A stretch of DNA of 31,322 nucleotides from a bacterium (GTDB taxonomy: Bacteria; UBP18; UBA7526): NCBI GenBank assembly GCA_030615855.1, contig JAUWYL010000015.1, positions 1 to 31,322 on the forward strand, in the 5' to 3' direction. Position 1 is the stretch's first letter. The number at the start of each line of letters is the position of its first letter. Both the position numbers and the translations under genes were made by a program. Positions 44-25,021 of the stretch are shown here, piece by piece. The notes under the pieces are model-generated. The model did not search any database and had not been told where the DNA came from. It worked only from the letters and a program-made list of their open reading frames with translations.

Positions 44-1519
44 TCATTCCAAGCCTTTCTCCGCCATCTCTACCGCTCTTACAAGCGCTCTTGCCTTATT
101 CACCGTCTCTTGATATTCTTGCTCTGGAATAGATTCAGCAATGATCCCTGCTCCTGCCTGGATATAGGCCTGGTTTCCTTTAATGACTATGGTTCTTATG
201 GTAATACCGGTATCGAGATTCCCGGAGAAAGAAAAGTAGCCTACTGTTCCGGCATAGGGGCCCCTTCTTACTGGTTCTAACTCATCAATAATCTCCAGGG
301 CCCTTTTTCTTGGAGCACCCACAACTGTCCCAGCAGGGAAGTTAGAGCGCAGGACATCGAAAGAGTCTTTATTTTTTCGTAGTCTTCCGGTAATATCACT
401 CACGATGTGCATCACATGGGAGTATTTTTCGATGACCATGAGTTCATTTACCCTCACGCTTCCCGGTCTTGACACTTTCCCTACATCATCCTTCCCCAGG
501 TCAACAAGCATCATATGTTCTGCCCTATCCTTAGGATGGGCAAGGAGTTCTTTTTCTAAGGCTTGGTCTTCCTTTAAAGTCTTCCCCCGATGCCTGGTCC
601 CGGCAATGGGTCTTACCTCTACTATCCCCCCTTCCAACCTCACTAAAATCTCTGGTGAGGAACCGATCAATCTCAAACCCTTGCACCTTAAATAATACAT
701 ATAGGGGGAGGGGTTGATGGTTCGTAGTGCGCGATAGATATCAAAGGGATCAACGGTAATTTTAGTCTCAAATCTCTGGGAAAGCACGACCTGAATGATA
801 TCCCCTGCTTTAATATATTCCTTCGCCTTCTTTACCTTTCTCTTAAATCCCTCTTTCGTAAAATTCGACTTTATGATAATCGGTGAACGGTGAACGGTGA
901 ACGGTGAACGGTAATGGGGAGTTGGTTTCTTAAGCTGATTTACCAGATTTTCAATCCTCTCGATCGCCTCCTGGTAGGCCTTCTTGGGATCCTTCTTGAC
1001 AGAGGCATTGGAAATCACCTTTATCTTATGCTCTAAATGATCGAAGATGAGAAGGGTATCGGCTAAGAGAAAGATGGCATCCGGAAGGTTCAGGTCATCC
1101 GGGTTCTCGTCCGGGATTTCTTCAAAGAAGCGCACCATATCATAAGCGAGATAGCCCACCATCCCTCCCACGAACCTGGGAAGCCCCTTAACCTTTACAA
1201 ACTTATAATCTGCCATTAACTTTTTCAAAGTAATGAGGGGATCGAATACCTCTTGGATTTTCTTTTTTCCCTCGCTAATGATCTCTACCCTTCTTCCCTT
1301 GCTCTTAAATATTAAAGAGGGATTACTTCCTAAGAAAGAATAGCGACCTAATTTTTCCCCTCTTTCTGCGCTCTCTAAGAGATAGGCATAGTCACCAGTA
1401 TCGATCTTGGTGAAGGCAGAGACCGGAGTTTCAAAGTCTGCTAAGATTTCTCTATAGACTGGGATGAGGTTCCCTTTTTTAGATTTCTGAATAAATTCTT
1501 TTAGACTTGGATAATACAT
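44..1519 (-). CDS. Chorismate-utilising enzyme, anthranilate synthase component I / aminodeoxychorismate synthase component I family (TrpE/PabB)
   Basis: 491 aa; N-terminal 'ETPVSAF' region and C-terminal chorismate-binding signatures (GAPRKRALEIIDELEP, GTVGYF, AGAGIIAES); ATG start at 1517-1519; contains an in-frame heptamer tandem repeat at ~882-916. Confidence 0.8.
   Translation of the reverse strand: MYYPSLKEFIQKSKKGNLIPVYREILADFETPVSAFTKIDTGDYAYLLESAERGEKLGRYSFLGSNPSLIFKSKGRRVEIISEGKKKIQEVFDPLITLKKLMADYKFVKVKGLPRFVGGMVGYLAYDMVRFFEEIPDENPDDLNLPDAIFLLADTLLIFDHLEHKIKVISNASVKKDPKKAYQEAIERIENLVNQLKKPTPHYRSPFTVHRSPIIIKSNFTKEGFKRKVKKAKEYIKAGDIIQVVLSQRFETKITVDPFDIYRALRTINPSPYMYYLRCKGLRLIGSSPEILVRLEGGIVEVRPIAGTRHRGKTLKEDQALEKELLAHPKDRAEHMMLVDLGKDDVGKVSRPGSVRVNELMVIEKYSHVMHIVSDITGRLRKNKDSFDVLRSNFPAGTVVGAPRKRALEIIDELEPVRRGPYAGTVGYFSFSGNLDTGITIRTIVIKGNQAYIQAGAGIIAESIPEQEYQETVNKARALVRAVEMAEKGLE
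882..916. repeat. In-CDS tandem heptamer (GGTGAAC)x4 + degenerate copy; minus-strand CGTTCAC family
   Basis: Read directly from the sequence; encodes 'SPFTVHRSP' in the TrpE-like protein, reading frame preserved. Confidence 0.8.
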
Positions 1520-1531: not shown

Positions 1532-2293
1532 TTATAAACGAACTGCCACTCCCTTTTTCTTTAAATACTCCTTGGCCTCTCTTATAGTATATTCTCTGAA
1601 GTGGAAGATAGAGGCGGCCAAGACAGCGTCTGCCTTTCCTTCTGTCAGGGCTTGATATAGGTGCTCCAAGTTCCCGGCGCCGCCAGAGGCGATCACCGGA
1701 AGACCAGTAGCCTCAGCAATCAAACAAATGGAATGGATGTCATATCCCTTCTTTGTTCCATCAGCATCAATACTGGTAGGTAAGATTTCTCCTGCTCCCA
1801 AATTCTTTACCTCTTTGGCCCACTCGATAGCATCCTTGCCAGTAGGGGTCTTTCCTCCCTCAACAATCACCTCATATCCTGAGGGCATACTGGGATTTTT
1901 TCTGGTATCGATGGCTACAATGATACGCTTTGAGCCAAACTTTTGAGAGGCCTCTTTCACTAAATCTGGATTTCTGACCGCTGCGGTATTGATGGCTATT
2001 TTACTTGCCCCCGCTTCGAGTATCTTTTCTATATCTTCCAGGTTACCGATCCCTCCTCCAACAGTGAGTGGGATACTTATCGCTTGCGCTACCTTCTCCA
2101 CCCAGGGAAGCATGGTCTTTCTCTTCTCCACAGTAGCACTAATGTCAAGGAAGGCTAATTCGTCTGCTCCTTCTTTCTCATAAAGAAAGGCAATCTCAGC
2201 AGGATTTCCTACATCCTTCAGATCAACGAACTTTACTCCCTTAACCACACGGCCATCCTTGATATCCAGACAGGGAATGATTCTCTTGGTCAC
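1532..2293 (-). CDS. hisF: Imidazole glycerol phosphate synthase cyclase subunit HisF
   Basis: 253 aa; N-terminus 'KRIIPCLDIKDGRVVKGVKF' is the HisF signature (not HisA); GTG start overlapping the stop of the upstream GDH gene (GTGA). Confidence 0.85.
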   Translation of the reverse strand: MTKRIIPCLDIKDGRVVKGVKFVDLKDVGNPAEIAFLYEKEGADELAFLDISATVEKRKTMLPWVEKVAQAISIPLTVGGGIGNLEDIEKILEAGASKIAINTAAVRNPDLVKEASQKFGSKRIIVAIDTRKNPSMPSGYEVIVEGGKTPTGKDAIEWAKEVKNLGAGEILPTSIDADGTKKGYDIHSICLIAEATGLPVIASGGAGNLEHLYQALTEGKADAVLAASIFHFREYTIREAKEYLKKKGVAVRL

Positions 2294-4087: not shown

Positions 4088-5311
4088 CTACTCCTTTGCC
4101 AAAATGGTAGCTACAACATTGTTTCCAAATCCTCCAAAATTGATCGCCAGACCATATTTTGGATTCTTAACCTGGCGGCCTTTCTCAGCTTCACTTCGCA
4201 GTTGCTTTACCAGTTCATGTATTTGAGAAATACCGGTGGCCCCCACAGGATGACCTTTGGCCTTCAATCCTCCGGAAGGATTAATTGGTAATCTCCCGGA
4301 AACTTCAGTTTCACCTTTCTCAGCTGCTTCGATTGCCTTACCCTTTTCAAAGAAACCAACCTCTTCAGCAAGACAAAGTTCCAAAATTACAAAGGCATCG
4401 TGAAGTTCAGCAAAAGAAATATCTTGAGGTCCGATACCGGCCATTTTATAAGCCATCTCAGCAGCCAGGCGAACAGCTTTTAAATCCAAAGGATCTTTTC
4501 TATTGTGAACGCAATGGGTGTCGGTAGCGGAACCAATACCGGCAATTCGTACTGGTTTCTTTTTAAATCTCGCAGCCCCATCCATAGCACACATCACAAC
4601 AGAAGATGCTCCATCTGAAACAGGGCACATATGATATAACCGCAAAGGTTCTGAAACGTAAGAATTGACAACAGAAGCATGGCAACTATCTGCAATCCCT
4701 TCCATGGTCACTGGTAATTGGACATGAGCAAAAGGATTTTTTTCTGCATTTAGATGGTCTTTTACGGCAATTAAAGATAACTGTCTTTCTGTCAGACCAT
4801 ATTTAGCCATATAAGCTCTGGTAAACATGGCTGCAAAAGCCGGTAAAGTCAGGCCATAAGGATATTCAACTTCTGGATGAGATAACGTGGCTACAAAATC
4901 TGTTGCTTCCCACCCAGTAACTCTTCGCATCTGCTCTCCCGCAGTGACCAGCACAACATCAACCATTCCAGAGACGATAGCCATATAGCCCATCTTGAAT
5001 GCTGAGGAACCCGAGGCCGGGCCATTGCTGACTAATTCAGCCATTGCCGGTTCCAGATTAAGCGTAGAAACCAGTGCAGATTCAATTCCTGTCTGATGAT
5101 TCAACATACCTGCTCCCATGTTGCCCACGATAACCTGGTCGATCCCCCCATCAATACCAGCATCTTCCATGGCATTTAGCGAGGCATAGGCCATGATATC
5201 GACCAGTTCATAATCACTAAGATTGCCAAATTTGGTATGTCCAATTCCTACTACCCCTACTTTTCTCACCCCGTTAGAAGTTTTTTCTTTTAAAAGTTGT
5301 TTTTTCTTCAT
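4088..5311 (-). CDS. Thiolase-like protein (SCP-x / nonspecific lipid-transfer-type thiolase)
   Basis: 407 aa; C-terminal thiolase motifs 'NPSGGLKAKGHPVGATG'; SD GGAG upstream of ATG 5309-5311. Confidence 0.75.
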   Translation of the reverse strand: MKKKQLLKEKTSNGVRKVGVVGIGHTKFGNLSDYELVDIMAYASLNAMEDAGIDGGIDQVIVGNMGAGMLNHQTGIESALVSTLNLEPAMAELVSNGPASGSSAFKMGYMAIVSGMVDVVLVTAGEQMRRVTGWEATDFVATLSHPEVEYPYGLTLPAFAAMFTRAYMAKYGLTERQLSLIAVKDHLNAEKNPFAHVQLPVTMEGIADSCHASVVNSYVSEPLRLYHMCPVSDGASSVVMCAMDGAARFKKKPVRIAGIGSATDTHCVHNRKDPLDLKAVRLAAEMAYKMAGIGPQDISFAELHDAFVILELCLAEEVGFFEKGKAIEAAEKGETEVSGRLPINPSGGLKAKGHPVGATGISQIHELVKQLRSEAEKGRQVKNPKYGLAINFGGFGNNVVATILAKE

Positions 5312-5325
5312 AGTTTCTCCGGTGC

Positions 5326-5350
5326 CCCATTAGAACTTCTAACGGGGCTC
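5326..5350 (-). other. Intercistronic RNA hairpin (11-bp stem, 1 mismatch) overlapping the GNAT-like stop, immediately 5' of the thiolase SD
   Basis: GCCCCATTAGAA-ct-TCTAACGGGGC; no U-tract follows, so not an intrinsic terminator. Confidence 0.4.
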
Positions 5351-6204: not shown

Positions 6205-7596
6205 TCATCTACGTCTAAGGTATTTGTTTATTGCCTGGGCGGCCCTCTTTCCATGTCCCATGGCATCGATCACCGTGGGCTCGCCCGGTATTATGTCTCC
6301 CCCCGCGAAGACTCCCGGGATAGAGGTGGCCCCATCCTTATCCACCAAAATATGGCCCTTAGGAGTGGTCTTCAGACTTGGGGTATAAGAAGGTAACAGA
6401 GGATTGGGCCCCTGGCCTATGGCTACCACTACCGTATCTACTTCCATCATAAACTGAGAACCCTCAATGGGTAAAGGCCTTCTCCTCCCACTCTCATCGG
6501 GCTCCCCCAATCTCATTCGGGTACACTCCATCCCTCTGACCCATCCCCTTTCATCTCCCAAGAAACGTATGGGCAAGGTCAGGAGTTTTATTCCTACTCC
6601 CTCTTCCTTAGCATGCTCTATCTCCTCCTGGCGAGCAGGCATCTCTTGTTCACTCCTTCGATAAGTAATGGTTACTTCTTCTGCTTCCAGGCGCTGGGCA
6701 ACCCGGGCAGCATCAAAAGCCACGTTTCCTCCCCCGATCACCGCCATCCTCCTTCCCTTTCTAACTGGGGTGTCGTACTCTGGAAACCTGTGGGCCTTCA
6801 TCAAGTTGACACGGGTCAGGAATTCATTCGCCGAATAGATACCATTCAAATTCTCTCCCGGGATGTTTAGAAAGCGAGGGAGCCCAGCCCCAGTGCCGAT
6901 AAAGACGGCCTTATATCCTTGCTCGAATAAATCCTTAAGAGTAAATACCTTGCCTATGAGCATATTGGTCTGGATCTCTACCCCCAGCCTTTTTATTCCC
7001 TCGATTTCAAAGTCCAGAACTCCTTTGGGCAATCTAAAGCCCGGGATCCCATACCTCAAGACCCCTCCTGGAAAATGCAAAGATTCGAATATGGTTACTC
7101 TATACCCTGATTTGGCCAGGTCGGCTGCTGCGGTCAACCCTGCCGGACCAGAACCCACCACCGCCACTTTTACATTTTTGAGTTTTGAGTTTTGCCCGCC
7201 CCGCTTCGCGGGGCGAGGCCGGGGAGTTTTGAGTTTAATATTCTGTGACTTGCCCCAGTCGGCAACAAACCTCTCCAACTTCCCAATGGCTAAAGGTTCT
7301 CCTTTTTTACCCAGAATACATTGGACCTCGCACTGGGTCTCCTGGGGGCAGACCCGACCGCAGATGGCGGGCAGGTTATTCTTCTCCCACAGGAGATTGA
7401 GGGCAGAATCGAACCTTCCCTCCTTTATATGAAGAGTGAATCCCGGGATGTCTATCCCTACCGGACATCCCTCCTTACAGGGTGCCGGGGAACATATCAG
7501 ACATCTACTGGCCTCTTCCCTTGCCCCTTCTGCGCTATATCCCAGGGCTACCTCTGCGAAGTTCCTAATCCTCTCCTCTGGCCTCTGCCTGGGCAT
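6205..7596 (-). CDS. NADPH-dependent glutamate synthase beta-subunit-like oxidoreductase (NfnB/SudA/GltD family)
   Basis: N-terminal Fe-S Cys cluster (CLICSPAPCKEGCP...CGRVCPQETQCEVQC), FAD/NAD Rossmann 'VAVVGSGPAGL' and 'VIGGGNVAFD'; start taken at internal ATG (7594-7596) giving 'MPRQRPEERIRNFAEV', which matches the SudA/NfnB N-terminus; ORF-track start is 7620; contains in-frame palindromic mini-insertion at ~7177-7238. Confidence 0.8.
   Translation of the reverse strand: MPRQRPEERIRNFAEVALGYSAEGAREEASRCLICSPAPCKEGCPVGIDIPGFTLHIKEGRFDSALNLLWEKNNLPAICGRVCPQETQCEVQCILGKKGEPLAIGKLERFVADWGKSQNIKLKTPRPRPAKRGGQNSKLKNVKVAVVGSGPAGLTAAADLAKSGYRVTIFESLHFPGGVLRYGIPGFRLPKGVLDFEIEGIKRLGVEIQTNMLIGKVFTLKDLFEQGYKAVFIGTGAGLPRFLNIPGENLNGIYSANEFLTRVNLMKAHRFPEYDTPVRKGRRMAVIGGGNVAFDAARVAQRLEAEEVTITYRRSEQEMPARQEEIEHAKEEGVGIKLLTLPIRFLGDERGWVRGMECTRMRLGEPDESGRRRPLPIEGSQFMMEVDTVVVAIGQGPNPLLPSYTPSLKTTPKGHILVDKDGATSIPGVFAGGDIIPGEPTVIDAMGHGKRAAQAINKYLRRR
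7177..7238. repeat. In-CDS mini-insertion: GAGTTTT direct repeats flanking GC-rich hairpin GCCCCGC-TTC-GCGGGGC
   Basis: Read directly; encodes 'KLKTPRPRPAKRGGQNSKLKN' immediately before the 'VAVVGSGPAG' Rossmann motif of the NfnB-like protein. Confidence 0.8.
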
Positions 7597-8431
7597 TCTC
7601 ACCCTTAAGTTCTTCCTCATATCTCTCCAGGGCTATCCTCTCCTCTTTTGTGAACCTTTTCTCCCGGACCAAAAGCTCATCGAAATCCACCAGCTCTCCT
7701 GGAAATTCTGGACCGTGGACGCAGACGAACCTATTCTCTTCTCCTACTCGTACACGACAGCTTCCACACATCCCAGTGCCATCCACCATGATGGTATTGA
7801 GGCTTACCGTAGTGGGAATTTTCTCCTTTTTAGTGATCTCACAGACCTTCTTCATCATGATCAAAGGTCCTATAGCCAGGACCTGATCCATCCTTTTCTT
7901 CTGGGCGATCAATCTCTCCAGGATATCGGTTACCAGGCCCTTCTCTCCATAGGAACCATCGTCAGTAGTGATATAGATCTCCTGGCTTAGATCCTTCATC
8001 TCTTTCTCTAAGATAATGAGCTCCTTAGTCCTAGCTCCCAGGATGGTGGTAATCCTATTCCCGGCCTCTTTTAGCGCTCTTGCAATAGGAACTAAGGGAA
8101 TGATCCCGATGCCCCCTCCAATAGTAAGCACCTCCCCATACTTCTCTATAGAGGTAGGTTTCCCCAAAGGGCCCAAAAGATCCGGGAGGGAATCCCCCAC
8201 CTTCAGGGTAGAGAGCTTCTTGGTAGTCTTTCCCACCTCCTGGAAGATGATGGTTATCCTGTCTTGGGTCCCATCCGCCTCATAGATGGTCAAGGGGATC
8301 CGTTCTCCCTGCTCATCGATTCTCAGGATGACGAATTGACCGGGCAGGGCTTTCTTAGCGATGAGGGGGGCCTCTATTTGGAATAGAGTGATCTCTGGCG
8401 CCACTCTTTTCTTGGCTACTATTTTGTTCAT
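7565..8431 (-). CDS. Ferredoxin-NADP+ reductase subunit alpha-like (NfnA/SudB/PyrK family; FAD + 2Fe-2S)
   Basis: 288 aa; PyrK-like FAD/NAD domain and C-terminal 2Fe-2S Cys motif 'GMCGSCRV...CVHGPEF'; 3' end overlaps start of NfnB-like gene. Confidence 0.8.
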   Translation of the reverse strand: MNKIVAKKRVAPEITLFQIEAPLIAKKALPGQFVILRIDEQGERIPLTIYEADGTQDRITIIFQEVGKTTKKLSTLKVGDSLPDLLGPLGKPTSIEKYGEVLTIGGGIGIIPLVPIARALKEAGNRITTILGARTKELIILEKEMKDLSQEIYITTDDGSYGEKGLVTDILERLIAQKKRMDQVLAIGPLIMMKKVCEITKKEKIPTTVSLNTIMVDGTGMCGSCRVRVGEENRFVCVHGPEFPGELVDFDELLVREKRFTKEERIALERYEEELKGENAQAEARGED

Positions 8432-8477
8432 CTTATCTAATCTTCAAGGGTTAGGAGGGGATAGAGGAGGAATATTG

Positions 8478-8630
8478 ATGTATCGGAGTATGGGCGTATT
8501 GGGGTATCGGTGTATCGGAGTGTCGGTGTAATGGTGTAAGTGAATATTTTTCTTTTTTACTCCCACACTCCACTACTCCCCTACCCCGTTACTCCCTTAC
8601 CCATCCTCACCCGTCCTTACCCTTCTCCTC
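8478..8630. repeat. Strand-asymmetric intergenic repeat region: G/T-rich (TATCGGAGT/GGTGTAAGTG units), then A/T centre, then C/T-rich (ACTCC/TTACCC units)
   Basis: Between NfnA-like start and aminotransferase stop; the two halves are loosely reverse-complementary. Confidence 0.7.
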
Positions 8631-11044: not shown

Positions 11045-11056
11045 CTAATCTCCCTA

Positions 11057-11122
11057 ACACGGATTAGCACAGATTAGAAAAAACAGATTAGCACAGATTT
11101 AATCCGTGCCTATCCGTGTCTA
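11057..11122. repeat. CACGGAT/ATCCGTG-family inverted tandem array (abuts the DERA stop codon)
   Basis: 'ACACGGATTAGCACAGATTAG...CAGATTAGCACAGATT' then 'AATCCGTGCCTATCCGTGTCTAAT'. Confidence 0.75.
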
Positions 11123-12007
11123 ATAGCCGGCTCCAGCTGGGGTTCCCTTTATGATAGCCACGCTCGCTGAGGCCCCGATCCTGGTGGCTCCGGCCTTGAG
11201 CAAGGCTTGGACATCCTCAAAGGTTCTGACTCCTCCCGAGGCCTTTACCCCCATAATAGGACCAACTATGCGACGCATGAGGGCAACATCGGCTACCGTT
11301 GCCCCCCCTCCACTGAAACCGGTGGATGTTTTAACAAAGTCTGCTCCAGCTTCCTTTGCTATCTGACAGGCCTTAATCTTTTCCTCTTGAGTTAGTAAAG
11401 CAGTCTCCAGAATCACCTTAACAATCCTTCCATTGGCCGCATTGACTACCGCCTGAATATCCTTTTTCACCAGATCGTAATTCTTTGCTTTCAGGGCTCC
11501 GATGTTCATCACCATATCGATCTCATCCGCTCCATTGGCGATGGCATCCCTGGTCTCCATGGCCTTGGCCGTGGAGGTCGTGGCTCCTAAGGGAAAACCG
11601 ATTACCGTAGTGATCTTGACTGGGGTCCCTTTTAGTACCTTTGCTGCTAAGGGGACATAACTGGGATTGATGCAGACAGAGGCAAAGTTATACTTCTTTG
11701 CCTCCTCACATAACTGGGTGATCTTCTCTGGAGAGGCATCGGGCTTTAAATAGGTATGATCAATGGTATGGGCAATCTCTTCTTTTGGCGGCCTTGCTCC
11801 AATGGTAGCCCCTATCCTCTCTGCTCCAGCAGCAACTACTTTCTCCACCTCACTGGGACACTTAACAACGCATAATCCACAGGCAGTACATTCGCTATCC
11901 GTTGCCGGACAGATGGTCACTCCAGGAATAACTCCTGTCTCCTCTTCAGCAAGGCGCCGCATAACATTCCTGGTTATTCTATCTATTAGCTCATCGAACT
12001 CAGCCAT
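11120..12007 (-). CDS. deoC: Deoxyribose-phosphate aldolase (DERA) with ~75 aa N-terminal extension (encapsulation-peptide-like helix + 4Fe-4S-type Cys motif)
   Basis: 295 aa; catalytic-Lys region '[16 protein letters not shown]', DERA core from ~aa 80 ('IDHTYLKP'); N-term '[19 protein letters not shown]' amphipathic helix; '[12 protein letters not shown]' = CxxCxxCxxxCP; SD GGAGGAAG. Confidence 0.85.
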
Positions 12008-12035
12008 TCTTCCTCCACGTGATTTCCAAGCATAT

Positions 12036-12096
12036 CGTTTACCGTTAACCCGCTTCGCTGTTTACCGTTTACCGTAAACCGTTAACCGTAAACCTG
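12036..12096. repeat. ACCGT-family tandem heptamers (TTTACCG/TAAACCG/TTAACCG)
   Basis: 'CGTTTACCGTTAACCCGCTTCGCTGTTTACCGTTTACCGTAAACCGTTAACCGTAAACC' between BMV1 stop and DERA start. Confidence 0.75.
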
Positions 12097-12099
12097 CTT

Positions 12100-12369
12100 T
12101 CATTCCATGTCGATGCGGTCTATTACTCCTGCGATAAAAGTCCTCACGGGAATATCTGGATTGCCGAATGCCTGACGGGCAGAGTTTCCCTCATCGATGA
12201 CCAGGACCGTCTCCCCAAAGCCGGCATAACCCTGATCCACGGCCATCAGGGAATTCCCCTCAGGCTTTAGTTTTTTATTCAGAGGTTGAACAATTAAGAG
12301 CCTATTCCCTTCCAGGTGCTTATTCTTCCTGGTAGCTACCACTACCCCGGTTACTTTAGCTATTAACAT
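12100..12369 (-). CDS. BMC vertex (pentamer) protein, EutN/CcmL/PduN family
   Basis: 89 aa; 'MLIAKVTGVVVATRK...LLIVQP' typical PF03319 N-terminus; SD AAGGGAG. Confidence 0.85.
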   Translation of the reverse strand: MLIAKVTGVVVATRKNKHLEGNRLLIVQPLNKKLKPEGNSLMAVDQGYAGFGETVLVIDEGNSARQAFGNPDIPVRTFIAGVIDRIDME

Positions 12370-12381
12370 TCTTCACTCCCT

Positions 12382-12669
12382 TCATTTAGATCGCGGTTTG
12401 GTTGGAGTAACCAAGGACTTGTGAATCCATCCCTCTCTCTTATCAGGTAGTCTAACCTTATACCAATTCCTGCTTTCCTCTAAGACCTTTAGGCGGTCAC
12501 CCTGTTTAAGAGTAATAACTATCTTACTCTCTATTGTAGCCGCACTTCTTATGTTGGCCTGCCCTACTTTGATCCAGACCTTGGCCGGGATTTTCTTAGT
12601 AGTTACCGCAGCACAGCCAGCCAATAGGATAACAACTACTAAGCCCAGTATTAAAAGTCTCCGTCCCAT
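12382..12669 (-). CDS. Bacterial SH3-domain lipoprotein
   Basis: Start taken at ATG (12667-12669) with SD GGGGGTG; signal peptide + lipobox 'LLAGC'; SH3b-like 'AKVWIKVGQANIRS...GDRLKVLEESRNWYKV'; ORF-track start 12687 is TTG. Confidence 0.55.
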   Translation of the reverse strand: MGRRLLILGLVVVILLAGCAAVTTKKIPAKVWIKVGQANIRSAATIESKIVITLKQGDRLKVLEESRNWYKVRLPDKREGWIHKSLVTPTKPRSK

Positions 12670-12701
12670 TCTATCACCCCCTTTCAATCATTCTTCTAGG
12701 C

Positions 12702-12830
12702 TGTCACGAAACTCGTTCCAGCCTATGATTACACAGATTCTAAAAAGATTACGCAGATTTTACCGACGAGTATTTGATCTGTGTAATCTAAATTTTAATG
12801 GGTGTAATAAAGGACGACACTTTTGTGACG
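12702..12830. repeat. Nested inverted repeats: 12-bp perfect IR GATTACACAGAT(12727-12738)/ATCTGTGTAATC(12777-12788) with third direct copy GATTACGCAGAT; outer imperfect IR TGTCACGAAA/TTTTGTGACG
   Basis: Read directly; lies upstream of the SH3-lipoprotein gene and downstream of BMV2. Confidence 0.75.
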
Positions 12831-12836
12831 CCCTAA

Positions 12837-13115
12837 TCATTCTTCCTCATGGATATCTATGGAGTCCACGATGCCCACGATACCTGCATCAACCGGAGCA
12901 ACCTCAGGTAATAGAGGTAAGGAAGCTTCCCGGGCCTCAACGTAGAAGACATAGTCCCCGATCCCCGCCTGAACAGTATCTACAGCCACCTGGGGCTTGT
13001 CTATGGGCTTTTTATCCTCCCAAGTTAAGGGCTGAATGATTAAAAGTTTTGCCCCTTCCAATGTCTCATACTTCTGAGAGGCAACTACTGTTCCAATGAC
13101 TTTAGCAAGCTTCAT
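12837..13115 (-). CDS. BMC vertex (pentamer) protein, EutN/CcmL family (paralog 2)
   Basis: Start taken at internal ATG (13113-13115) preceded by SD GGAAGGAG, giving 'MKLAKVIGTVVASQK...'; the ORF-track N-terminal extension begins on GTG. Confidence 0.8.
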   Translation of the reverse strand: MKLAKVIGTVVASQKYETLEGAKLLIIQPLTWEDKKPIDKPQVAVDTVQAGIGDYVFYVEAREASLPLLPEVAPVDAGIVGIVDSIDIHEEE

Positions 13116-13164
13116 AGGCTCCTTCCAGTCGCGCTTCAAGCCATACACTTAGGAAGCGGTGAAT

Positions 13165-13235
13165 CGGAGATCCTCTTTCTCCGCATCCTTATATCCCTCT
13201 ATTACCGTTTCTCCCTTTCTCCGTCTCTCCGTTTC
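13165..13235. repeat. Hairpin CGGAGA-tcctctt-TCTCCG plus tandem CCGT(T/C)TCTC units
   Basis: Read directly, between RpiB stop and BMV2 start. Confidence 0.6.
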
Positions 13236-13255
13236 AACATTCCTACAGCCTGTGG

Positions 13256-13789
13256 CTATTTCAAGTATTTTTTTTCTATTCCCATTATCTTATCTACTCT
13301 TCGGGCATGACGACCACCAGCGAACTTAGTCTCCAGCCATACCTTAACCATCTCCTTTGCTAAAGCAACTCCAATGGTCTGGCCCCCGAGACATAGAATA
13401 TTGGCATCATCATGCTCACTGGCCATCTTTGCAGTAAAGGTGTCATAGGCCAAAGCCGCCCTTATTCCGGGAACCTTATTACAGGCGATGCAGGAACCCA
13501 TTCCCGCACCATCGATCATTATTCCTTTAGAACATTCTCCCTTTACAACCTCTGAAGCAACGAGATGGGCATAGTCCGGATAGTCGCAGGACTCCGGGCT
13601 ATAGGGACCACAGTCCTTCACCTTATATCCCAATTCATTGAGATATTTTCTCAGTTCCTCCTTTAAGGGGAACCCTCCGTGATCGCTCCCCATGGCAATT
13701 TTCTTCTCATCCTTAGGAGGAGCTTCAGAGGATTTTAACTGAGCAGCAACTTCTTTTACGATCTTCTTTATGATATCCTCAGAAACCAT
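13256..13789 (-). CDS. rpiB: Ribose-5-phosphate isomerase B (RpiB/LacAB family) with N-terminal encapsulation-peptide-like extension
   Basis: 177 aa; 'IAMGSDHGGFPLKEEL', 'GMGSCIACNKVPGIRAA'; ~30 aa N-terminal extension 'MVSEDIIKKIVKEVAAQL' (amphipathic). Confidence 0.85.
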   Translation of the reverse strand: MVSEDIIKKIVKEVAAQLKSSEAPPKDEKKIAMGSDHGGFPLKEELRKYLNELGYKVKDCGPYSPESCDYPDYAHLVASEVVKGECSKGIMIDGAGMGSCIACNKVPGIRAALAYDTFTAKMASEHDDANILCLGGQTIGVALAKEMVKVWLETKFAGGRHARRVDKIMGIEKKYLK

Positions 13790-13794
13790 TCTTC

Positions 13795-14028
13795 TTACTC
13801 TTTTATAATTTTGATTCTGAATTCCAGGGCCCTATCCCGGGCAAAAGGGGTGATGATGGCATCCCTGGGAACCCTTAATTCCTTGCATCCCTGCTTTGCC
13901 GCCTTAAGCATCACCTCTTCATTAACGAGCATCCTCTTCGTCCCACGGGGAGAAGTTACCTTCCCCTTTCCAGCCAACTCCTTCTGGACCTCTTCAGTAA
14001 CGATTTGAATCAACTTCTCTTTATCCAT
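13795..14028 (-). CDS. Small hypothetical protein with N-terminal encapsulation-peptide-like helix (BMC-associated, no recognisable catalytic domain)
   Basis: ~77 aa from ATG 14026-14028 (SD GGAG 8 nt upstream; ORF-track GTG start at 14037); 'MDKEKLIQIVTEEVQKEL' amphipathic helix then Gly/Lys linker and ~45 aa C-terminal module '...KELRVPRDAIITPFARDRALEFRIKII'. Confidence 0.5.
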   Translation of the reverse strand: MDKEKLIQIVTEEVQKELAGKGKVTSPRGTKRMLVNEEVMLKAAKQGCKELRVPRDAIITPFARDRALEFRIKIIKE

Positions 14029-14050
14029 TTCGCTCACTCCGTTCGCTCAA

Positions 14051-14151
14051 TACGCTGATTACCGCTGATATACTGCACTGATTGCCGCTGATTATCTGCG
14101 GTCATCTGCGTCTTTTTTCCATATCTCTCCTCGCCATCTGCGTCTATCTGC
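14051..14151. repeat. Tandem GCTGAT(T/A) x4 followed by ATCTGCG x4 around a T-rich centre
   Basis: Read directly, between PduT stop and the small EP-protein start. Confidence 0.7.
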
Positions 14152-14153
14152 GT

Positions 14154-14705
14154 TTATAAGAGGGCTTTACGTAGTGCCTCATGGGGCTTGGGGATGACGG
14201 TTCGATTGACTAATAGTCCTTCCTCTTCTATCTCTCTGCAACCAGCATCTATGGCAGCCTTGACCGCATCTACTTCTCCTGTCAAGGTAACGAAGCCCTT
14301 TCCGGCCAATCCCTTTGCTAAACGAATTTCGATGAGTTCTATCTTGGCCGCCTTTACTGCGGCATCTGCAGCCAGGATAATGGCTGATACAGAGAAGGTC
14401 TCTATTACACCAATTGCTTTTAGCTCCTTAATAACGCTCGTTCCCATTATGGCCGGAAAGACATCGGAGTGGACATTGGGAATGACGAAGCTATCCATCA
14501 CTGTTTCTTTACCCACTTCCTTTCCTTTATCGATTGAGGACCGGACACTGGCCACATCTCCCATTACCAAGACGATATATTTACCGGGGCAGATGGAGAA
14601 GGATTCGATGAGGTCCACTGCCGCTACCTTCATCATGGCATCACAGACCTCAAACCCCCGGGCAACACTATTCAATTCCACCATACCGATGGCATTTTTA
14701 ACCAT
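14154..14705 (-). CDS. pduT: PduT-like tandem-domain BMC shell protein (BMC-T, putative Fe-S pore)
   Basis: 183 aa; two PF00936 domains; strong resemblance to PduT as I recall it ('AIGMVELNSVARG...DAMMK', 'SICPGKY', 'AIGVIETFSVSA...AADAAVKAA', 'GLLVNRTVIPKPHEAL'); conserved pore Cys in 'CPGK'. Confidence 0.85.
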   Translation of the reverse strand: MVKNAIGMVELNSVARGFEVCDAMMKVAAVDLIESFSICPGKYIVLVMGDVASVRSSIDKGKEVGKETVMDSFVIPNVHSDVFPAIMGTSVIKELKAIGVIETFSVSAIILAADAAVKAAKIELIEIRLAKGLAGKGFVTLTGEVDAVKAAIDAGCREIEEEGLLVNRTVIPKPHEALRKALL

Positions 14706-14728
14706 TTCATCCTCGTTTCACTCGGATA

Positions 14729-14816
14729 GTTTACAGTTTATCCGCTCGGCCTTTGGCCTCGCTGTTTACTGTTAACCGTCTTTTACCGTAAACCGTACAC
14801 CGTTAACCGTAAACCC
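14729..14816. repeat. ACCGT-family array containing dispersed block TTTACCGTAAACCGTACACCGTTAACCGTAAACC
   Basis: Upstream of PduT start; 23-27 nt identical to copies at ~25787-25815 and ~26901-26925. Confidence 0.8.
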
Positions 14817-14840
14817 TATCTTGCTGGTTACTGCTCACTG

Positions 14841-16163
14841 TTATGCTTCGATAGTAATAGAGTCTCCGATATCGGTTATCTTTCCCTCTATTGAGGCATG
14901 AATCCTTGCTCCTAAGGCTCCTCTGGGAATATCGGCAATCAAATCTCCCACTTTTACTTTCTCATTCAACTTTACGGTCGGGATCGATTTTGCTCCCACA
15001 TGCTGAGAGAGAGAAATCCTGACAAGGTTCGTCCGATATTCTCTCTTCTCCAGAGGAGCATCAAGATTATATTCCTCTATTCCGATCCTTGAGATGATCC
15101 TCTCTGTAGGAACTTTGCGATACTCTATCATGGAATGGGCTTCCTCCGGAGCCTCCTTATGGGGATTCTTAACCTTGGCCTCTGTCAGTTCCTTTTTAAT
15201 CTCCTGATTCACCCTGAGTGGTGATAGTCCAAAAGGACAAGCATATAGATTACATAAACCGCATTCTGAACAGAGGAAAGCAGCGGTGATGTCATTCAAT
15301 TCCTTTCTCATTTCATACCCCACATGCCTCATTATCTTATGGGGTTTTAAGGAATGGCCGATTAAGTACCGGGGACAGAGTTCAGTGCAGTCGGTGCACT
15401 GCATACAGAGCATGGTCTTCCTGAGGATTTTTCTCATCTCCAGGGTCTTGTTCATAATGACCTGATGGTCTTTGGGCAGGACAATCAATCCCGTGGTGGT
15501 CTTCATTACTGGGGAATCCAAATCTTCAATCAGTTTCCCCATCATAGGTCCGCCATCCAAGACAGAAAAATCATTTATCTTTGGTTCAGCTAATCTTATT
15601 ACCTCTCCCACACTCATCCCCACGGGAACCTTCACTGACTTCGGTCCCTTCACCGCCCCGGATATTGTGAGATAGCGATGGGTGACCGGCCTTCTTTCTA
15701 TAGTATCTGCAACATTGATGAGGGTTCCCACATTATCCACCACCACTCCCACTTGTAGGGGAATTCCTCCCTCAGGGACGATCCTCTTCAATACCTCATA
15801 GACCAGTATCTGCTCATCACCCGCAGGATAGAAGTCACCAAGGATAAATAGTTCGATGTGGGATGGAGGATGTGGGATGTGGGATGTTAAAGCAGCGATG
15901 GCCTCTTTATATTTTTCTTTTAAAGCAATAAATCCCTTCTTGGCTCCCGTGGCCTCCATTACTAGCTTTAAACCCTTGATCACTTTGTTCGCTTGGGTAG
16001 CCATTAATTGCTGATCGATGCGCAAGAGAGGCTCACACTCCGCACCATTGGCGATGACATACTCTACCTTGGTCTCTAACTTCACATGGGTGGGGAAGCC
16101 CGCTCCCCCTGCTCCCACCACCCCAGCATCCCTTACTTTCTCAATAATCTCTTTCTTATTCAT
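14841..16163 (-). CDS. pduS: PduS/RnfC-like Fe-S flavoprotein (BMC-associated oxidoreductase)
   Basis: 440 aa; N-terminus 'VRDAGVVGAGGAGFPTHVKLE' as in PduS/RnfC; two ferredoxin motifs 'CMQCTDCTELCP' and 'CSECGLCNLYACP'; in-frame heptamer repeat (~15855-15886) encoding 'HIPHPPSHI'; my manual base count and the ORF track disagree by 1 nt at this start codon. Confidence 0.8.
   Translation of the reverse strand: MNKKEIIEKVRDAGVVGAGGAGFPTHVKLETKVEYVIANGAECEPLLRIDQQLMATQANKVIKGLKLVMEATGAKKGFIALKEKYKEAIAALTSHIPHPPSHIELFILGDFYPAGDEQILVYEVLKRIVPEGGIPLQVGVVVDNVGTLINVADTIERRPVTHRYLTISGAVKGPKSVKVPVGMSVGEVIRLAEPKINDFSVLDGGPMMGKLIEDLDSPVMKTTTGLIVLPKDHQVIMNKTLEMRKILRKTMLCMQCTDCTELCPRYLIGHSLKPHKIMRHVGYEMRKELNDITAAFLCSECGLCNLYACPFGLSPLRVNQEIKKELTEAKVKNPHKEAPEEAHSMIEYRKVPTERIISRIGIEEYNLDAPLEKREYRTNLVRISLSQHVGAKSIPTVKLNEKVKVGDLIADIPRGALGARIHASIEGKITDIGDSITIEA
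15855..15886. repeat. In-CDS tandem heptamer (GATGTGG)x4.5
   Basis: Encodes 'HIPHPPSHI' inside the PduS-like protein, in frame. Confidence 0.8.
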
Positions 16164-16224
16164 TCCGTCATTCCGTCATTCCGTCATTCCGTCAGTAAGT
16201 TAGACGGATAGACGGATTAGACGT
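16162..16224. repeat. (CATTCCGT)x4 tandem octamer followed by (GACGGATA)x2.5 near-reverse-complement units; includes the PduS start codon
   Basis: Read directly; on the mRNA strand gives ACGGAATG x4 immediately 5' of and including the ATG. Confidence 0.8.
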
Positions 16225-16249
16225 TTCCTTCAAAACTTAAAGTTTTTTA

Positions 16250-17680
16250 TTAGGCAATTCTAAAGTAATCCACCAATACGCATCTTAAGGGTCTAGTGAA
16301 GGTGCTGGCTTTGGTCAATCCTTCTCCAGTGGGGGTGGCGATGCTCATGGTGGCATATCCCTCTCCCTCGTACCCCAACCCGGCATAGGAAGGGGCATTC
16401 TTAACGAAGATGGAAACTTGAGCGGTCTTGGCCATCTTGGTCAGATTGGCAACATTTAAGGAATGCATGATGGCGGTATGCTTATTGGCCTGTTCAACTT
16501 CTACAGCAAAATTAATTGCCTCATCAACATCTTTTACCCTGACAAAAGGGATGACCGGCATGAGCTGCTCTGTCCAGACGAAAGCGTGGTTTCGGTCCAC
16601 TTCACAGAATAAGAGTCTGGTACTCTCTGGTACTTTTACTCCAATCTTGGAAGCGATTAAAGTGGCATCCCTACCAATATACTCCCTACTCACTTTGGGC
16701 TCTTTCCCTGGACCACCTGGTTCCAGTATGGCGGCCTTGGTTAACTTTTCAAACTCATCCTTCTTTAACTCATAGGTCCGGGGATCCTTGCGCAATAGTT
16801 CCAATAATCTATCAGCAATAGCTTCCACGGCGATGATCTCCTTCTCTGCGGTACACAAGACGCCATTGTCAAAACTGGCTCCCTTTATGATGGAGTCAGA
16901 GGCATGCTCTAAGTCTAAAGTCTCATCTATTACTACTGGAGGATTCCCTGGACCAGCAGCAATCACCTTCTTTCCGCAGGCCATGGCGGCTCTCACCACC
17001 CCTGGCCCACCAGTGACTAGGATGAGCTTTATCTTGGGATGCTTGAATAGTGTCTGGGCCTCTTCAATGGAGGGCTTGGCAGCAGTGGTCATCAGATTTG
17101 CTGGCCCACCTGCTTTTATAATCGCTTCATTAAGAATCTGAATGGATTTCAGGGATACCTTCTTGGCTGCCGGATGGGGGGCGAAGACCACACTATTCCC
17201 GGCAGCGATGATGGAGATGGCATTATTTATTATGGTAGAGGAAGGATTGGTAGAGGGAGTCACAGCACCTATTACTCCAAAGGGAGCCATCTCCACTAAG
17301 GTTAAACCATGGTCCCCAGTATAGGCTATGGGGTGTAGATCCTCTACTCCAGGGGTCTTCTGGGCAGATAATAAGTTCTTCTGGACCTTATCCTCCCACC
17401 TTCCCATCTTGGTCTCTTCCCAGGCCAATTTTGCTAAACTCTCTGCCTCCCGGATTGAGGCCTCCCTCATAGCCTCGATATATTTGCTCCTCTTCTCCAG
17501 ACTCTCGCGAAAGAGCTCCCTTTGGGCAATCCGTGCCGCCTCAATGGCTTCCTCCACATTAGGAAAGACCCCCAGGTCCCCAGCACCTGCCTTTACTTCA
17601 GGAGGTCTGGCCTCTTCTTTGGTCATCCTCTCTACTATTTCCTTAACAACTTCTCTTATCTTCTCTGGACTGATCTCCAT
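16250..17680 (-). CDS. CoA-acylating aldehyde dehydrogenase (EutE/PduP family) with N-terminal encapsulation peptide
   Basis: Catalytic Cys box 'FDNGVLCTAEKEII'; start taken at ATG (17678-17680; SD GAGG 6 nt upstream) giving 'MEISPEKIREVVKEIVERM'; ORF-track start 17707 is GTG inside the upstream repeat array. Confidence 0.85.
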   Translation of the reverse strand: MEISPEKIREVVKEIVERMTKEEARPPEVKAGAGDLGVFPNVEEAIEAARIAQRELFRESLEKRSKYIEAMREASIREAESLAKLAWEETKMGRWEDKVQKNLLSAQKTPGVEDLHPIAYTGDHGLTLVEMAPFGVIGAVTPSTNPSSTIINNAISIIAAGNSVVFAPHPAAKKVSLKSIQILNEAIIKAGGPANLMTTAAKPSIEEAQTLFKHPKIKLILVTGGPGVVRAAMACGKKVIAAGPGNPPVVIDETLDLEHASDSIIKGASFDNGVLCTAEKEIIAVEAIADRLLELLRKDPRTYELKKDEFEKLTKAAILEPGGPGKEPKVSREYIGRDATLIASKIGVKVPESTRLLFCEVDRNHAFVWTEQLMPVIPFVRVKDVDEAINFAVEVEQANKHTAIMHSLNVANLTKMAKTAQVSIFVKNAPSYAGLGYEGEGYATMSIATPTGEGLTKASTFTRPLRCVLVDYFRIA

Positions 17681-17703
17681 CTTCATCCTCACTTCGCTCC
17701 GGT

Positions 17704-17789
17704 GCACGGATAATCACGGATTTCATACGGATGAGCACAGATTAAATCCGTGCTAATCTGTATTATTATCAGTGCTAATCCGTGTCTAA
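17704..17789. repeat. Phased CAC(G/A)GAT x4 then ATC(C/T)GTG x4 array (same family as 21443-21523)
   Basis: Unit starts approximately 17704/17714/17725/17735 and 17747/17757/17770/17780 (~10 bp phasing); spans BMV3 stop to AldDH start. Confidence 0.8.
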
Positions 17790-18076
17790 GACTTTCTGAA
17801 TAAAACCTTACCTTCTACCTCAATGGTATCCACAATGGCCATGATCACCGCATCTGTGGGGGTATCCTTAGTCCTTACTGTCTGACGGGCAGAGGAGCCC
17901 TTGGCGATCAGGACCACCTCTCCGATTCCAGCTCCCACAGCATCGATGGCTACCAGAGGAGATCCCTCCTCTTTTCCTTCCATGCTTATGGGCTGAATCG
18001 CCAATAACTTACAACCCTCTATCTTCTCATCCTTCCTGGTAGCCACAACGGTACCAATCACCTTGGCAAATATCAT
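17786..18076 (-). CDS. BMC vertex (pentamer) protein, EutN/CcmL family (paralog 3)
   Basis: 96 aa; 'MIFAKVIGTVVATRK...LLAIQP'; strong SD AAGGAGGAG. Confidence 0.85.
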   Translation of the reverse strand: MIFAKVIGTVVATRKDEKIEGCKLLAIQPISMEGKEEGSPLVAIDAVGAGIGEVVLIAKGSSARQTVRTKDTPTDAVIMAIVDTIEVEGKVLFRKS

Positions 18077-18100
18077 CTGTCTCCTCCTTATAGATTAGAA

Positions 18101-18166
18101 GTTTACAGTAGCCAGTTAACAGTAACCAGTCTTCTACTGTAAACTGTTCGCTGGTTACTGGTTACT
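18101..18166. repeat. GGTTACTG-family element: GTTTACAGT...CAGTAACCAG then ACTGTAAAC...CTGGTTACTG (unit / reverse-complement unit, order preserved)
   Basis: Exact 9- and 10-nt reverse-complement pairs at ~30 nt offset; between AckA stop and BMV3 start. Confidence 0.75.
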
Positions 18167-19370: not shown

Positions 19371-19403
19371 TTTTACCCCCTTTAAGGTTGGTATTAGTTA
19401 GCA

Positions 19404-19465
19404 GTGTACAGTTTACAGCAAAAAACTGGTTACTGTTCGCTGGTTACTGATTACTCTTTATCTTA
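19404..19465. repeat. GGTTACTG-family element (shares CTGTTCGCTGGTTACTG(G/A)TTAC with 18136-18166)
   Basis: Between PduL stop and AckA start. Confidence 0.75.
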
Positions 19466-21131: not shown

Positions 21132-21422
21132 CTATTTACCAGGAGTGATGGGCATTACCCCTTCCAGATCCGGATGAGGTCGGGGAATGACGTGGACGCT
21201 TATCAGTTCTCCTACTTTCTGGGCAGCACTGGCTCCCGCATCGCAGGCTGCCTTGCAGGCGGCAACGTCACCCCTCACCAAGGTAGTGACATAGCCGGCT
21301 CCGATCTTCTCCCAGCCCACGAGATTCACCTTGGCGGCCTTGATCATGGCATCTGTAGCCTCGATAAGGGTTACCAGTCCCTTGGTCTCAATCATCCCCA
21401 GCGCTTCTCTTGCTTCTACCAT
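21132..21422 (-). CDS. BMC-H hexameric shell protein (PduA/EutM type, PF00936)
   Basis: Start taken at ATG 21420-21422 (SD AGAGGAGGTG) giving '[30 protein letters not shown]...'; the ORF-track extension to 21476 runs into the upstream repeat array. Confidence 0.85.
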
Positions 21423-21442
21423 TTTCTTCACCTCCTCTAATA

Positions 21443-21523
21443 CACGGATAATCACAGATTCTTTACGGATGGTCACGGATCAAATCCGTGCTAATCCGTG
21501 TTGTTATCCGTGCTAATCCGTGT
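21443..21523. repeat. Phased (C/T)AC(G/A)GAT x4 then ATCCGTG x4 array upstream of the BMC-H gene
   Basis: Unit starts approximately 21443/21453/21463/21473 and 21484/21494/21506/21516; between DGC stop and BMC-H start. Confidence 0.85.
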
Positions 21524-24554: not shown

Positions 24555-24620
24555 TATTCGTGTCAATTCGTGTTCTACTTCTTTCGTCTACCCTTTATAG
24601 TTCGCGTTGATTCGTGTTCT
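24555..24620. repeat. ATTCGTGT(TC) tandem/dispersed units spanning the 3' end of the small Lys-rich gene and the intergenic spacer
   Basis: Five units read directly; partly coding (encodes '...EHESTRT...'). Confidence 0.7.
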
Positions 24621-25021
24621 TTAAATACTAAGGTAGGCCAGATCTTTTCTAAGACACCCTTCTCCAGCACCAGAATCTTCTTTATGTCCTCTTTCTTTAT
24701 CTCCACGCTCTGGGGACGTCTCACTACCTCTGGCTTCTCCAAGACAATTCTCTTCCCTTTTTTAGACTTCACGGTTCCTACTACTTCACAGCCCGGGGTC
24801 CTAATGAGTACTTTCTCCCCCCTCTTTAGTTCCCCTATCTTTTTCTCTTTCACCATACTGGGCAGGCACATAGAGATTATTCCGGGATAGAGAGGGACCT
24901 GCTTATGGGTCTCCCAGATCTCTTTCAATACCTCAACCACCAGGGCTGGGTTCTTATACTTCTGGATGAGATTTATCATCTCTTTCTTTAGATTGGGATA
25001 ATCCGATTCCTGAAAGGTCAT
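24575..25021 (-). CDS. Hypothetical Lys-rich small protein (translationally coupled to upstream P-loop kinase)
   Basis: 148 aa; SD GAGGAGGGAG; ATG overlaps upstream stop (ATGA); C-terminal codons lie within an ATTCGTGT repeat array; no recognisable domain. Confidence 0.5.
   Translation of the reverse strand: MTFQESDYPNLKKEMINLIQKYKNPALVVEVLKEIWETHKQVPLYPGIISMCLPSMVKEKKIGELKRGEKVLIRTPGCEVVGTVKSKKGKRIVLEKPEVVRRPQSVEIKKEDIKKILVLEKGVLEKIWPTLVFKEHESTRTIKGRRKK

Follow-up and report, generated by a model that had tools for sequence, protein, structure and literature searches.

How tandem arrays of a 7-nt unit come to stand in frame inside conserved enzyme genes is the question raised by the bacterial contig JAUWYL010000015.1 (assembly GCA_030615855.1). 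The window analysed here is this whole stretch of 31,322 nt, in which all genes lie on the minus strand. It derives from a lineage without cultured members, and the closest relative to have a name is the candidate-phylum metagenome-assembled genome (MAG) UBP18_UBA7526. An earlier note on this DNA had reported heptamer arrays in a TrpE-like gene, a PduS-like gene, and a small Lys-rich open reading frame (ORF), and had proposed that they are either slipped-strand contingency loci or tolerated invasions by a repeat-generating process. It had also reasoned that a 7-nt unit preserves the frame only at specific copy numbers, which holds: the frame is kept if the change is of three units or is compensated. 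The second proposal fits the orthologous sites, the constant frame, and the depletion of arrays from coding DNA described below. It is probable that the genic arrays are tolerated, frame-constrained members of a short-repeat population found throughout the lineage. We infer that they stem from slippage and are selectively neutral passengers rather than functional elements.

The first array (site 1) lies in the gene for anthranilate synthase component I, TrpE. The ORF matches solved TrpE structures (E = 1e-114) and encodes the Pfam domains Anth_synt_I_N (aa 29-166) and Chorismate_bind (aa 222-475), with the array falling between them. The in-frame GGTGAAC repeat described earlier was recovered by Tandem Repeats Finder (TRF) as (CGGTGAA)x4.6, with period 7 and 100% matches. 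On the sense strand the units are TTACCGT, three copies of TCACCGT, TCACCGA, and TTATCAT, and the encoded peptide is H-Y-R-S-P-F-T-V-H-R-S-P-I-I (..YRSPFTVHRSPI..; read as HYRSPFTVHRSPII). No other perfect heptamer array with at least three copies exists in the window, and none arose in 300 mononucleotide shuffles of it. An exact-sequence look-up of the window TrpE returned no match. That this array might be a regulatory element peculiar to trp, for example a TRAP site, was considered and rejected, as arrays of like kind occur in unrelated genes.

The second array (site 2), in a PduS/RnfC-like flavoprotein gene, was also confirmed as an in-frame GATGTGG repeat, for which TRF returned 4.7 copies at 15855-15887 with period 7 and 84% matches. 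Its sense units are ACATCCC, ACATCCC, ACATCCT, CCATCCC, and ACATCGA, encoding the peptide T-S-H-I-P-H-P-P-S-H-I-E, which holds SHIPHPPSHI (read as TSHIPHPPSHIE). In both TrpE and PduS the 7-nt unit passes through three phases and is read in frame as a 7-residue-periodic peptide. A third in-frame array, absent from the earlier note, was found in a gene for a GltD-like Fe-S/FAD oxidoreductase, where it occupies the linker that joins Fer4_20 (aa 17-127) to Pyr_redox_2 (aa 151-457). Its sense units are AAACTCA, AAACTCC, AAACTCA, AAACTCA, and AAAATGT, with a 30-nt insert, CCGGCCTCGCCCCGCGAAGCGGGGCGGGCA, between the second and third. The insert folds into a strong hairpin with the core GCCCCGCGAAGCGGGGC and is read as PRPRPAKRGG.

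The TrpE site is conserved among relatives. Proteins were compared across the 20 closest orthologues (78-100% identity), P0024, and 13 other sequences. A 7-residue-periodic, heptamer-encoded peptide occupies the linker in 20/20 of the closest orthologues and in P0024, with examples including KSKVKSQ, GSRVKGQ, KSKIKNQ, HRSPITD, and RSKIQDP. The best heptamer accounts for 7-12 of 12 linker residues in these 20 (at least 9 in 18 of them), and for only 4-7 of 12 in the 13 other sequences. The protein is 490 aa long in 18 of the 20 and 491 and 492 aa in the remaining two. Members of four clusters at 90% identity contain no array-length variants (490-492 aa), and in relatives that lack the array the linker is an ordinary one of equal length. 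The earlier note had allowed that orthologues might encode this segment with non-repetitive DNA; the segment is repetitive in the close orthologues too, and it is the unit that differs.

DNA was read for seven TrpE sequences, in all of which the position, register, and number of units are identical while the unit sequence differs. The unit is TCACCGT in the window, T[TC]AAGGG in L002, TC[CA]AAAG in L003, T[CGT]AAAAA in L004, TCACCGA in L162, TCAAAAA in L163, and TCCAG[GC]A in L165. A scan of metagenome contigs with TrpE returned only matches of 65% identity or less, and no further close DNA. TrpE genes of Omnitrophota MAGs, 62-65% identical, have linker arrays too. L012 and L087 carry a perfect AAAGTCA x4.6, a unit identical to that of the close relative L003, and L085 carries AAACCGC x5.4. 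An apparent decayed 8-mer occupies the linker in L016, L020, and L094.

Similar conservation extends to other genes. Most close PduS orthologues have a heptamer array at the matching site (e.g. SRIQDPGSRIQ and SPITGHRSPIT), and their length changes consist only of hairpin inserts or small in-frame indels. Within 90%-identity clusters, length differences result from start-codon choice or contig-end artefacts, not from arrays. Further in-frame heptamer arrays were found in DapF-like, HisH, HisF, GatA, and other genes of relatives, with HisH showing an orthologous array of a different unit.

All copies inside one gene's array change together, that is, by concerted evolution. Adjacent copies within each array match at 69-100% of positions even between lineages with saturated four-fold sites. 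As the copies stay alike despite saturated silent sites, homogenisation must be ongoing. The closest relative aligned with the window was MAG CSMAG_2758 (L002/L168), with genes 88-95% identical and a four-fold-site divergence of 0.17 between the window and L002. Across this pair the units differ at 3/7 positions in TrpE, about 2-3/7 in GltD, where L002/L168 has five CCGAACC-type units without the 30-nt insert, and 0/7 in PduS. These counts suggest array-level change at about the neutral rate. Hypermutation of the units is not claimed, as ~5.5 changes in 21 unit positions do not differ significantly from 0.17 at four-fold sites. Most low-identity segments between the window and CSMAG_2758 are arrays or small inserts, the sole clear exception being window 983-1015, which lies just upstream of the TrpE array and is divergent without being repetitive. 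The block around this array, non-repeat flanks included, is unusually divergent between the window and L002, which points to allelic exchange through homologous recombination.

The two halves of TrpE (alignment residues 1-195 vs 220-490) group the orthologues differently. The gene is thus a mosaic, a pattern that suggests frequent homologous recombination among these populations. One TrpE homologue, P0003, has a duplicated N-terminal segment and an aberrant C-terminus, which probably reflect mis-assembly.

Selection works on single copies, with the consensus avoided where an in-frame stop would arise. In L002 TrpE the consensus TTAAGGG would give an in-frame TAA in copy 3, and only copy 3 is TCAAGGG. 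In L004 TrpE, TGA-type units are confined to the two copies in which TGA is out of frame. AlphaFold models of low to moderate confidence (mean predicted local distance difference test scores of 57.7 and 69.3) place the PduS array in a short coil between a helix and a strand, and weakly suggest that genic arrays encode loops or coil segments. As RNA, the genic arrays are single-armed and unstructured, with folding z-scores of +2.5 for TrpE and +0.7 for PduS.

Arrays of this kind are far more frequent outside genes. TRF identified 35 short tandem arrays in the window, with units of 6-19 nt, mostly 7-10 nt. Gene-internal arrays number 2-3 per 28.1 kb of coding DNA vs 14 per 3.3 kb of spacer (12 intergenic and two overlapping a gene edge), giving a density per base ~40-60 times lower in coding DNA. 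This strong depletion from genes indicates that selection removes arrays rather than exploiting them. Sampling of the lineage covered ~130 kb. The clade contains 77 arrays in 95.8 kb, of which 39 are heptamers, or 8.0 per 10 kb compared with 1.1 in 157 other loci. The other array-rich loci in the sample come from cyanobacteria and one Omnitrophota single-cell genome. Hence the features of long simple-sequence repeats (SSRs) are present: tandem copies beyond chance (by TRF and shuffles), lineage enrichment with heptamers predominant, and depletion of non-triplet units from coding DNA.

Most of the longer spacers contain direct 7-10-nt repeats followed by their reverse complements in gene-sense orientation. 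Pairing of the arms is G:U-compatible on the sense strand only, as in CACGGATT with AATCTGTG. Folded as sense RNA, the array pairs give long hairpins in which bulges recur periodically. For 7 of 10 pairs z lies between -3 and -5.3, and for the paired-array spacers of Table 1 between -2.5 and -5.3. An Rfam scan of the window found no known RNA family. The claim that genic and intergenic arrays draw on the same unit families held in part. It applies loosely to TrpE, where the sense unit ACCGTTC and the complement of intergenic GGTTAAC, ACCGTTA, differ by one mismatch. It holds for the element at the Lys-rich ORF, a member of the CACGGATTAG-like 10-mer family, but not for the PduS unit ACATCCC.

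The proposed origin of the genic arrays is as follows. Arrays of 7-10-nt units, about 30-40 nt each, form a population that saturates the spacers of the lineage. Replication slippage or template switching in a 7-nt register would create and continually homogenise them, and selection would purge nearly all such events from coding DNA. The arrays surviving in genes would be those that occupy loops or inter-domain linkers, are single-armed and unstructured as RNA, contain no stop codons in the frames actually read, and have a total length that preserves the frame. Each survivor would then be translated through all three unit phases to give a 7-residue-periodic, low-complexity loop.

Several observations weigh against this account. 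Slippage by one unit frameshifts the gene, so length-neutral homogenisation requires paired or three-unit events, and the expected intermediates of plus or minus 7 residues are absent from the TrpE orthologues compared. Units also recur between genes: ACCGATC, AGGATCC, and AGCATCC are common to TrpE and PduS, AAAAGTC is found in TrpE and GltD, and AAAACTC in PduS and GltD. When TrpE and PduS arrays of one unit type were sought in one genome, their sources proved to be different MAGs or a bulk metagenome assembly. Unit types recur even in Omnitrophota TrpE at 62% identity. Such recurrence exceeds what a free neutral walk would predict. Unit types of TrpE do not agree with the similarity groups of either half of the protein, and L165 retains the TrpE array yet has one array in 21 kb of genome. 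Lastly, one GatA site has a heptamer array in L163 and an octamer array plus 16 residues in L171, which looks like replacement rather than drift. Part of the recurrence may follow from limits on unit choice. Of 2,344 heptamer necklaces, 1,612 are stop-free, and 558 encode no more than one hydrophobic residue. The choice is narrowed by the need to avoid stops in every frame, by A-rich composition, and by a bias toward hydrophilic residues, which may account for the recurrence in part.

The same recurrence could indicate that the repeated RNA, DNA, or peptide is itself functional, for example as a protein-binding platform, a translation pause, or a fixed-length flexible linker, although we regard this as unlikely. 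Retention of the site over deep divergence, in Omnitrophota TrpE at 62% identity and in the array-poor L165, would suit such a role, as would the strict conservation of TrpE length, the limited unit repertoire common to several genes, and the position of arrays at domain junctions with a markedly unstructured sense strand. However, unit and peptide are wholly different in close relatives (HRSPFTV, KGQGLRV, KSKVQSQ), which leaves no conserved function that depends on the sequence. Where arrays are lacking, relatives manage with ordinary linkers of equal length, arrays tolerate hairpin inserts of 21-30 nt, and the shared repertoire may derive partly from stop avoidance and A-rich composition.

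It is similarly doubtful that mobile elements or a dedicated enzyme home to the arrays and overwrite them from a shared pool, despite several signs of insertion. The 30-nt hairpin occurs in arrays of two genes, in two genomes and two reading frames. In L167 a copy with one mismatch lies in the middle of the PduS array, where the other frame gives PGLAPRSGAG, and in L169 this position is occupied by a related hairpin of 21 nt. Peptide traces of the insert were also found in P0130 and P0135, and copies of CCGGCCTCGCCCCGCGAAGCGGGGCGGGCA number one in the window and none among the 166 loci searched before L167 was added. Array blocks separate L002 genes that overlap (ATGA) in the window, and the converse is also seen. 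Orthologous spacers carry unrelated arrays whose periods differ too, an ordered array, GGTTTACGGTTAACGGTGTACGGT, is present at several loci and across genomes, and unit types are common to different genes. Nonetheless, the window contains no transposase, RAYT-like, or reverse-transcriptase genes. Genic arrays within one genome all differ in type, which argues against recent cross-locus copying. The non-repeat flanks of the TrpE array diverge as well, as they would under ordinary allelic homologous recombination.

Given equally low credence is a lineage-specific, length-preserving rewriting of ~35-nt tracts at fixed addresses, essential genes included, using a limited repertoire of 7-10-nt units. 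On this reading the rewritten tracts could also be landing pads for the hairpin mini-elements. If true, rewriting would amount to a form of sequence turnover new for bacteria, targeted and length-preserving, and would account for units that recur in unrelated genes and distant lineages.

The contingency reading of the earlier note, in which slipped-strand gain and loss of units would turn TrpE, PduS, and other genes off and on reversibly within the population, is very improbable. A gain or loss of one or two 7-nt units would indeed frameshift the gene, the TrpE tract has a perfect core, and homogenisation in itself implies slippage. One orthologue pair, P0136/P0139, also differs by 7 residues at the PduS array site. 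However, the hosts are housekeeping and metabolic enzymes of several pathways (TrpE, PduS-like, and GltD-like, with HisH, HisF, GatA, and DapF-like in relatives) rather than surface, host-interaction, restriction-modification, or comparably dispensable functions, and their short tracts, of 4-6 units, lie in loops in the middle of the gene. The number of TrpE units is constant in the DNA read, and 90%-identity clusters hold no length variants. No off, split, or truncated alleles were seen among the listed homologues, where fragments would score too low to be listed.

Mis-assembly of repeats does occur, but an assembly or sequencing artefact is hardly credible given that a typical sequencing read is presumably longer than the arrays (32-35 nt), no reading frame is broken, more than 20 independent assemblies contain homologous arrays, and an independent Logan assembly (L001) is identical to the window over 4,377 nt including the PduS array. 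Being 100% identical to the window, L001 is uninformative on copy-number variation.

Table 1. Coordinates of the arrays, their host genes, and related elements (window positions unless a relative is named).
Feature	Position	Strand	Description
TrpE heptamer array (site 1)	873..914	(-)	6 in-register sense units; perfect core 881-912
TrpE, anthranilate synthase component I	44..1519	(-)	full-length, 491 aa; Pfam and structure match
PduS-like heptamer array (site 2)	15853..15887	(-)	5 in-register sense units
PduS/RnfC-like flavoprotein	14841..16163	(-)	microcompartment locus; Pfam Complex1_51K, Fer4_17, RnfC_N
Third in-frame heptamer array	7172..7236	(-)	in GltD-like gene
GltD-like Fe-S/FAD oxidoreductase	6205..7620	(-)	hosts third array; Fer4_20, Pyr_redox_2 domains
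GC-rich hairpin mini-insert CCGGCCTCGCCCCGCGAAGCGGGGCGGGCA	7193..7222	(-)	30 nt, within GltD array
Omnitrophota TrpE arrays	L012 5727-5758; L087 2248-2279; L085 1213-1250		
10-nt-period element (site 3)	24556..24617	(-)	sense AACACGAATC AACGCGAACT ... AACACGAATT GACACGAAT; not a heptamer array
Small ORF	24575..25021	(-)	no Pfam family; Lys-rich C-terminal tail HESTRTIKGRRKK
TAG-phased 10-mer arrays	21477-21523, 17708-17785, 11045-11119, 24537-24574		
Paired-array spacers	8432-8630, 11045-11119, 16164-16249, 17708-17785, 18077-18161, 20137-20222, 26809-26924		
GGTTTACGGTTAACGGTGTACGGT ordered array, window	12060-12094, 14785-14815, 25791-25814, 26900-26927		
GGTTTACGGTTAACGGTGTACGGT ordered array, relatives	L167 4088-4118; L168 11997-12027; L172 613-643, 7819-7849		

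The remaining location in the earlier note, the end of the Lys-rich ORF (site 3), is of a different kind. Repeat units do run into the last codons as claimed, but the ATTCGTGT motifs are spaced by 10 nt, not 7. Two copies (24556-24573) lie beyond the stop codon, in a spacer of 38 nt, and two (24601-24617) in the last 15 codons of the ORF. The final ~12 codons, the TAG stop, and the spacer up to the next gene all come from this element. The L169 orthologue ends ..VFKEK* right before the next gene and has no element, while the window and L168 each have their own different inserted 10-mer element, which replaces the stop and adds a 12-residue tail. Because L169 ends in this way, the Lys-rich tail amounts to read-through into an inserted intergenic element, and site 3 is an intergenic element overlapping a gene end. 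Here and elsewhere in the window, 10-mer arrays (ACACGGATTAG CACGGAT..) start right after, and in phase with, a TAG stop, the TAG lying within the unit ATTAGCACGG. The 10-mer element appears to supply the stop codon of the upstream gene.

Some spacer arrays resemble discrete elements. The ordered array GGTTTAC GGTTAAC GGTGTAC GGT.. (GGTTTACGGTTAACGGTGTACGGT) is found in at least four window spacers and also across genomes, and is kept downstream of PduS in other genomes. It behaves like a dispersed element rather than a set of independent slippage products. ATGA gene overlaps in one genome correspond to array blocks in the other, as at window 44-47 vs L002 7474-7590, where the block after TrpE is 122 nt, and at window 2290-2293 vs L002 5173-5224, where a 27-nt x2 element that resembles site 3 makes up the block. 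The alternation of overlap and block in close relatives indicates that array blocks are gained or lost as units. An element of ~66 nt with inverted termini (CCCCGTTRGAAGT ... ACTTCYAACGGGG, sense strand) lies at window 5249-5335, where it parts two genes that overlap in L002 and gives the thiolase an N-terminal extension (..KTSNGV..). Members of this family are also found in frame within HisH and GatA of L163 and HisH of L171, with the peptide ..TSNGVKG.

The PduS-like gene belongs to a bacterial microcompartment (BMC) locus at 11120-21476, which encodes BMC-H/T and three EutN-like shell proteins together with DeoC aldolase, RpiB, PTAC, acetate kinase, aldehyde dehydrogenase, the PduS-like protein, TIM, and an SH3 protein. 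On both sides of the BMC-H gene (21132..21476) there are 10-mer arrays in opposite orientations. A perfect (TGACGGAA)x4.4 on the sense strand (16160-16194), directly adjoining the start codon ATG of the PduS-like gene, makes up the 3' arm of a hairpin. Every TGACGGAA unit includes ACGGA, and the array could be a Shine-Dalgarno-like or CsrA-type site and thus a candidate translational control point. Two JGI homologues of PduS, P0251 and P0253, have VSYTHLTLPTSDLV after the normal C-terminus, which we take to be a contig-end artefact.

The arrays share features with several known repeat systems. Heptanucleotides are described as the commonest long SSRs of repeat-rich bacteria, for which polymerase slippage has been proposed (Mrazek 2007, as cited in PMC4679880). 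As far as this class is characterised in PMC4679880 and PMC4692102, it agrees with the window arrays in having head-to-tail 7-nt units that are abundant in certain lineages, mostly intergenic, and depleted in genes when non-triplet, with slippage as the proposed origin. It differs, as presented there, in that the window arrays stand in frame inside conserved enzymes at sites kept across species with concerted change of the unit, the intergenic arrays are inverted pairs forming hairpins, and their host belongs to a candidate-phylum lineage that is uncultured.

The TAACTGA repeats known from marine Beggiatoaceae, from cyanobacteria, and from Bacteroidetes are also heptamer direct repeats of 2-6 copies, mostly between genes and near start codons (MacGregor 2015, PMC4679880). 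The minority in ORFs are in the stop-free orientation at the protein periphery and encode the 7-residue repeat LSVISYQ (PMC4679880). However, that system has one dominant unit, no hairpin pairing, and ORF cases that are mostly hypothetical proteins (PMC4679880), whereas the window has many units which change between relatives and orthologous arrays in internal loops of conserved enzymes. The genic units of the window (ACCGTTC, ACATCCC, AAACTCA) are not TAACTGA/TCAGTTA, and the intergenic arms ACTGTTA and ACTGGTT merely resemble it.

GGGNATC repeats of Xanthomonas and Nostoc (Rehm 2015, PMC4692102) are heptamers with about four units preferred, lie between co-directional genes, and show under-representation within coding DNA (PMC4692102), all as in the window. 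Unlike these, the window units do not form G-quadruplexes, the genic sense strand is C/A-rich and G-poor, and the host is no cyanobacterium. Cyanobacteria reportedly also carry the STRR heptamers described by Mazel in 1990, and some window units (AACCAGT, GAACAGT) resemble STRR units.

The heptanucleotide repeats of hmw1A in Haemophilus influenzae (PMC8262952) likewise have a non-triplet tandem unit whose copy number could shift frame or expression. The window arrays differ from that contingency locus in the class of gene, in how long the tract is and where in the gene it lies, and in a copy number that stays constant among relatives. Borg repeats (Schoelmerich 2023, PMC9879509) are similar as pervasive, fast-evolving tandem repeats found in spacers and ORFs, where they encode low-complexity or disordered segments. 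Their ORF units are all divisible by three and rarely conserved between relatives (PMC9879509), in contrast to the window, where a conserved site holds a unit of 7 nt, which is not divisible by three and is read in three phases. The 30-nt GC hairpin and the ~66-nt element recall REP/REPIN sequences (Bertels and Rainey 2011, PMC3116915) as tiny dispersed palindromic inserts. They differ in lying in frame within coding arrays, with no transposase among the window genes and few copies sampled. The small dispersed repeats (SDRs) of cyanobacteria, associated with Elhai in 2008, are said to occur inside tandem heptamers as well.

Non-triplet repeats in genes are usually deemed lethal or taken to be phase-variation switches, and the arrays described here represent a third state, in which heptamers are stable in frame in core-enzyme loops, keep their site across species, change in concert, and are edited by selection in single copies where a stop would arise. 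For annotation, this means that such tracts in MAGs are real and not frameshift errors. The uncultured lineage and some Omnitrophota are as rich in short repeats as the sampled cyanobacterial loci, with array pairs able to form hairpins in most spacers and very small hairpin inserts in frame. The arrays provide a natural system in which to measure slippage-driven homogenisation under reading-frame constraint, and could reveal how DNA-level processes give birth to low-complexity protein loops.

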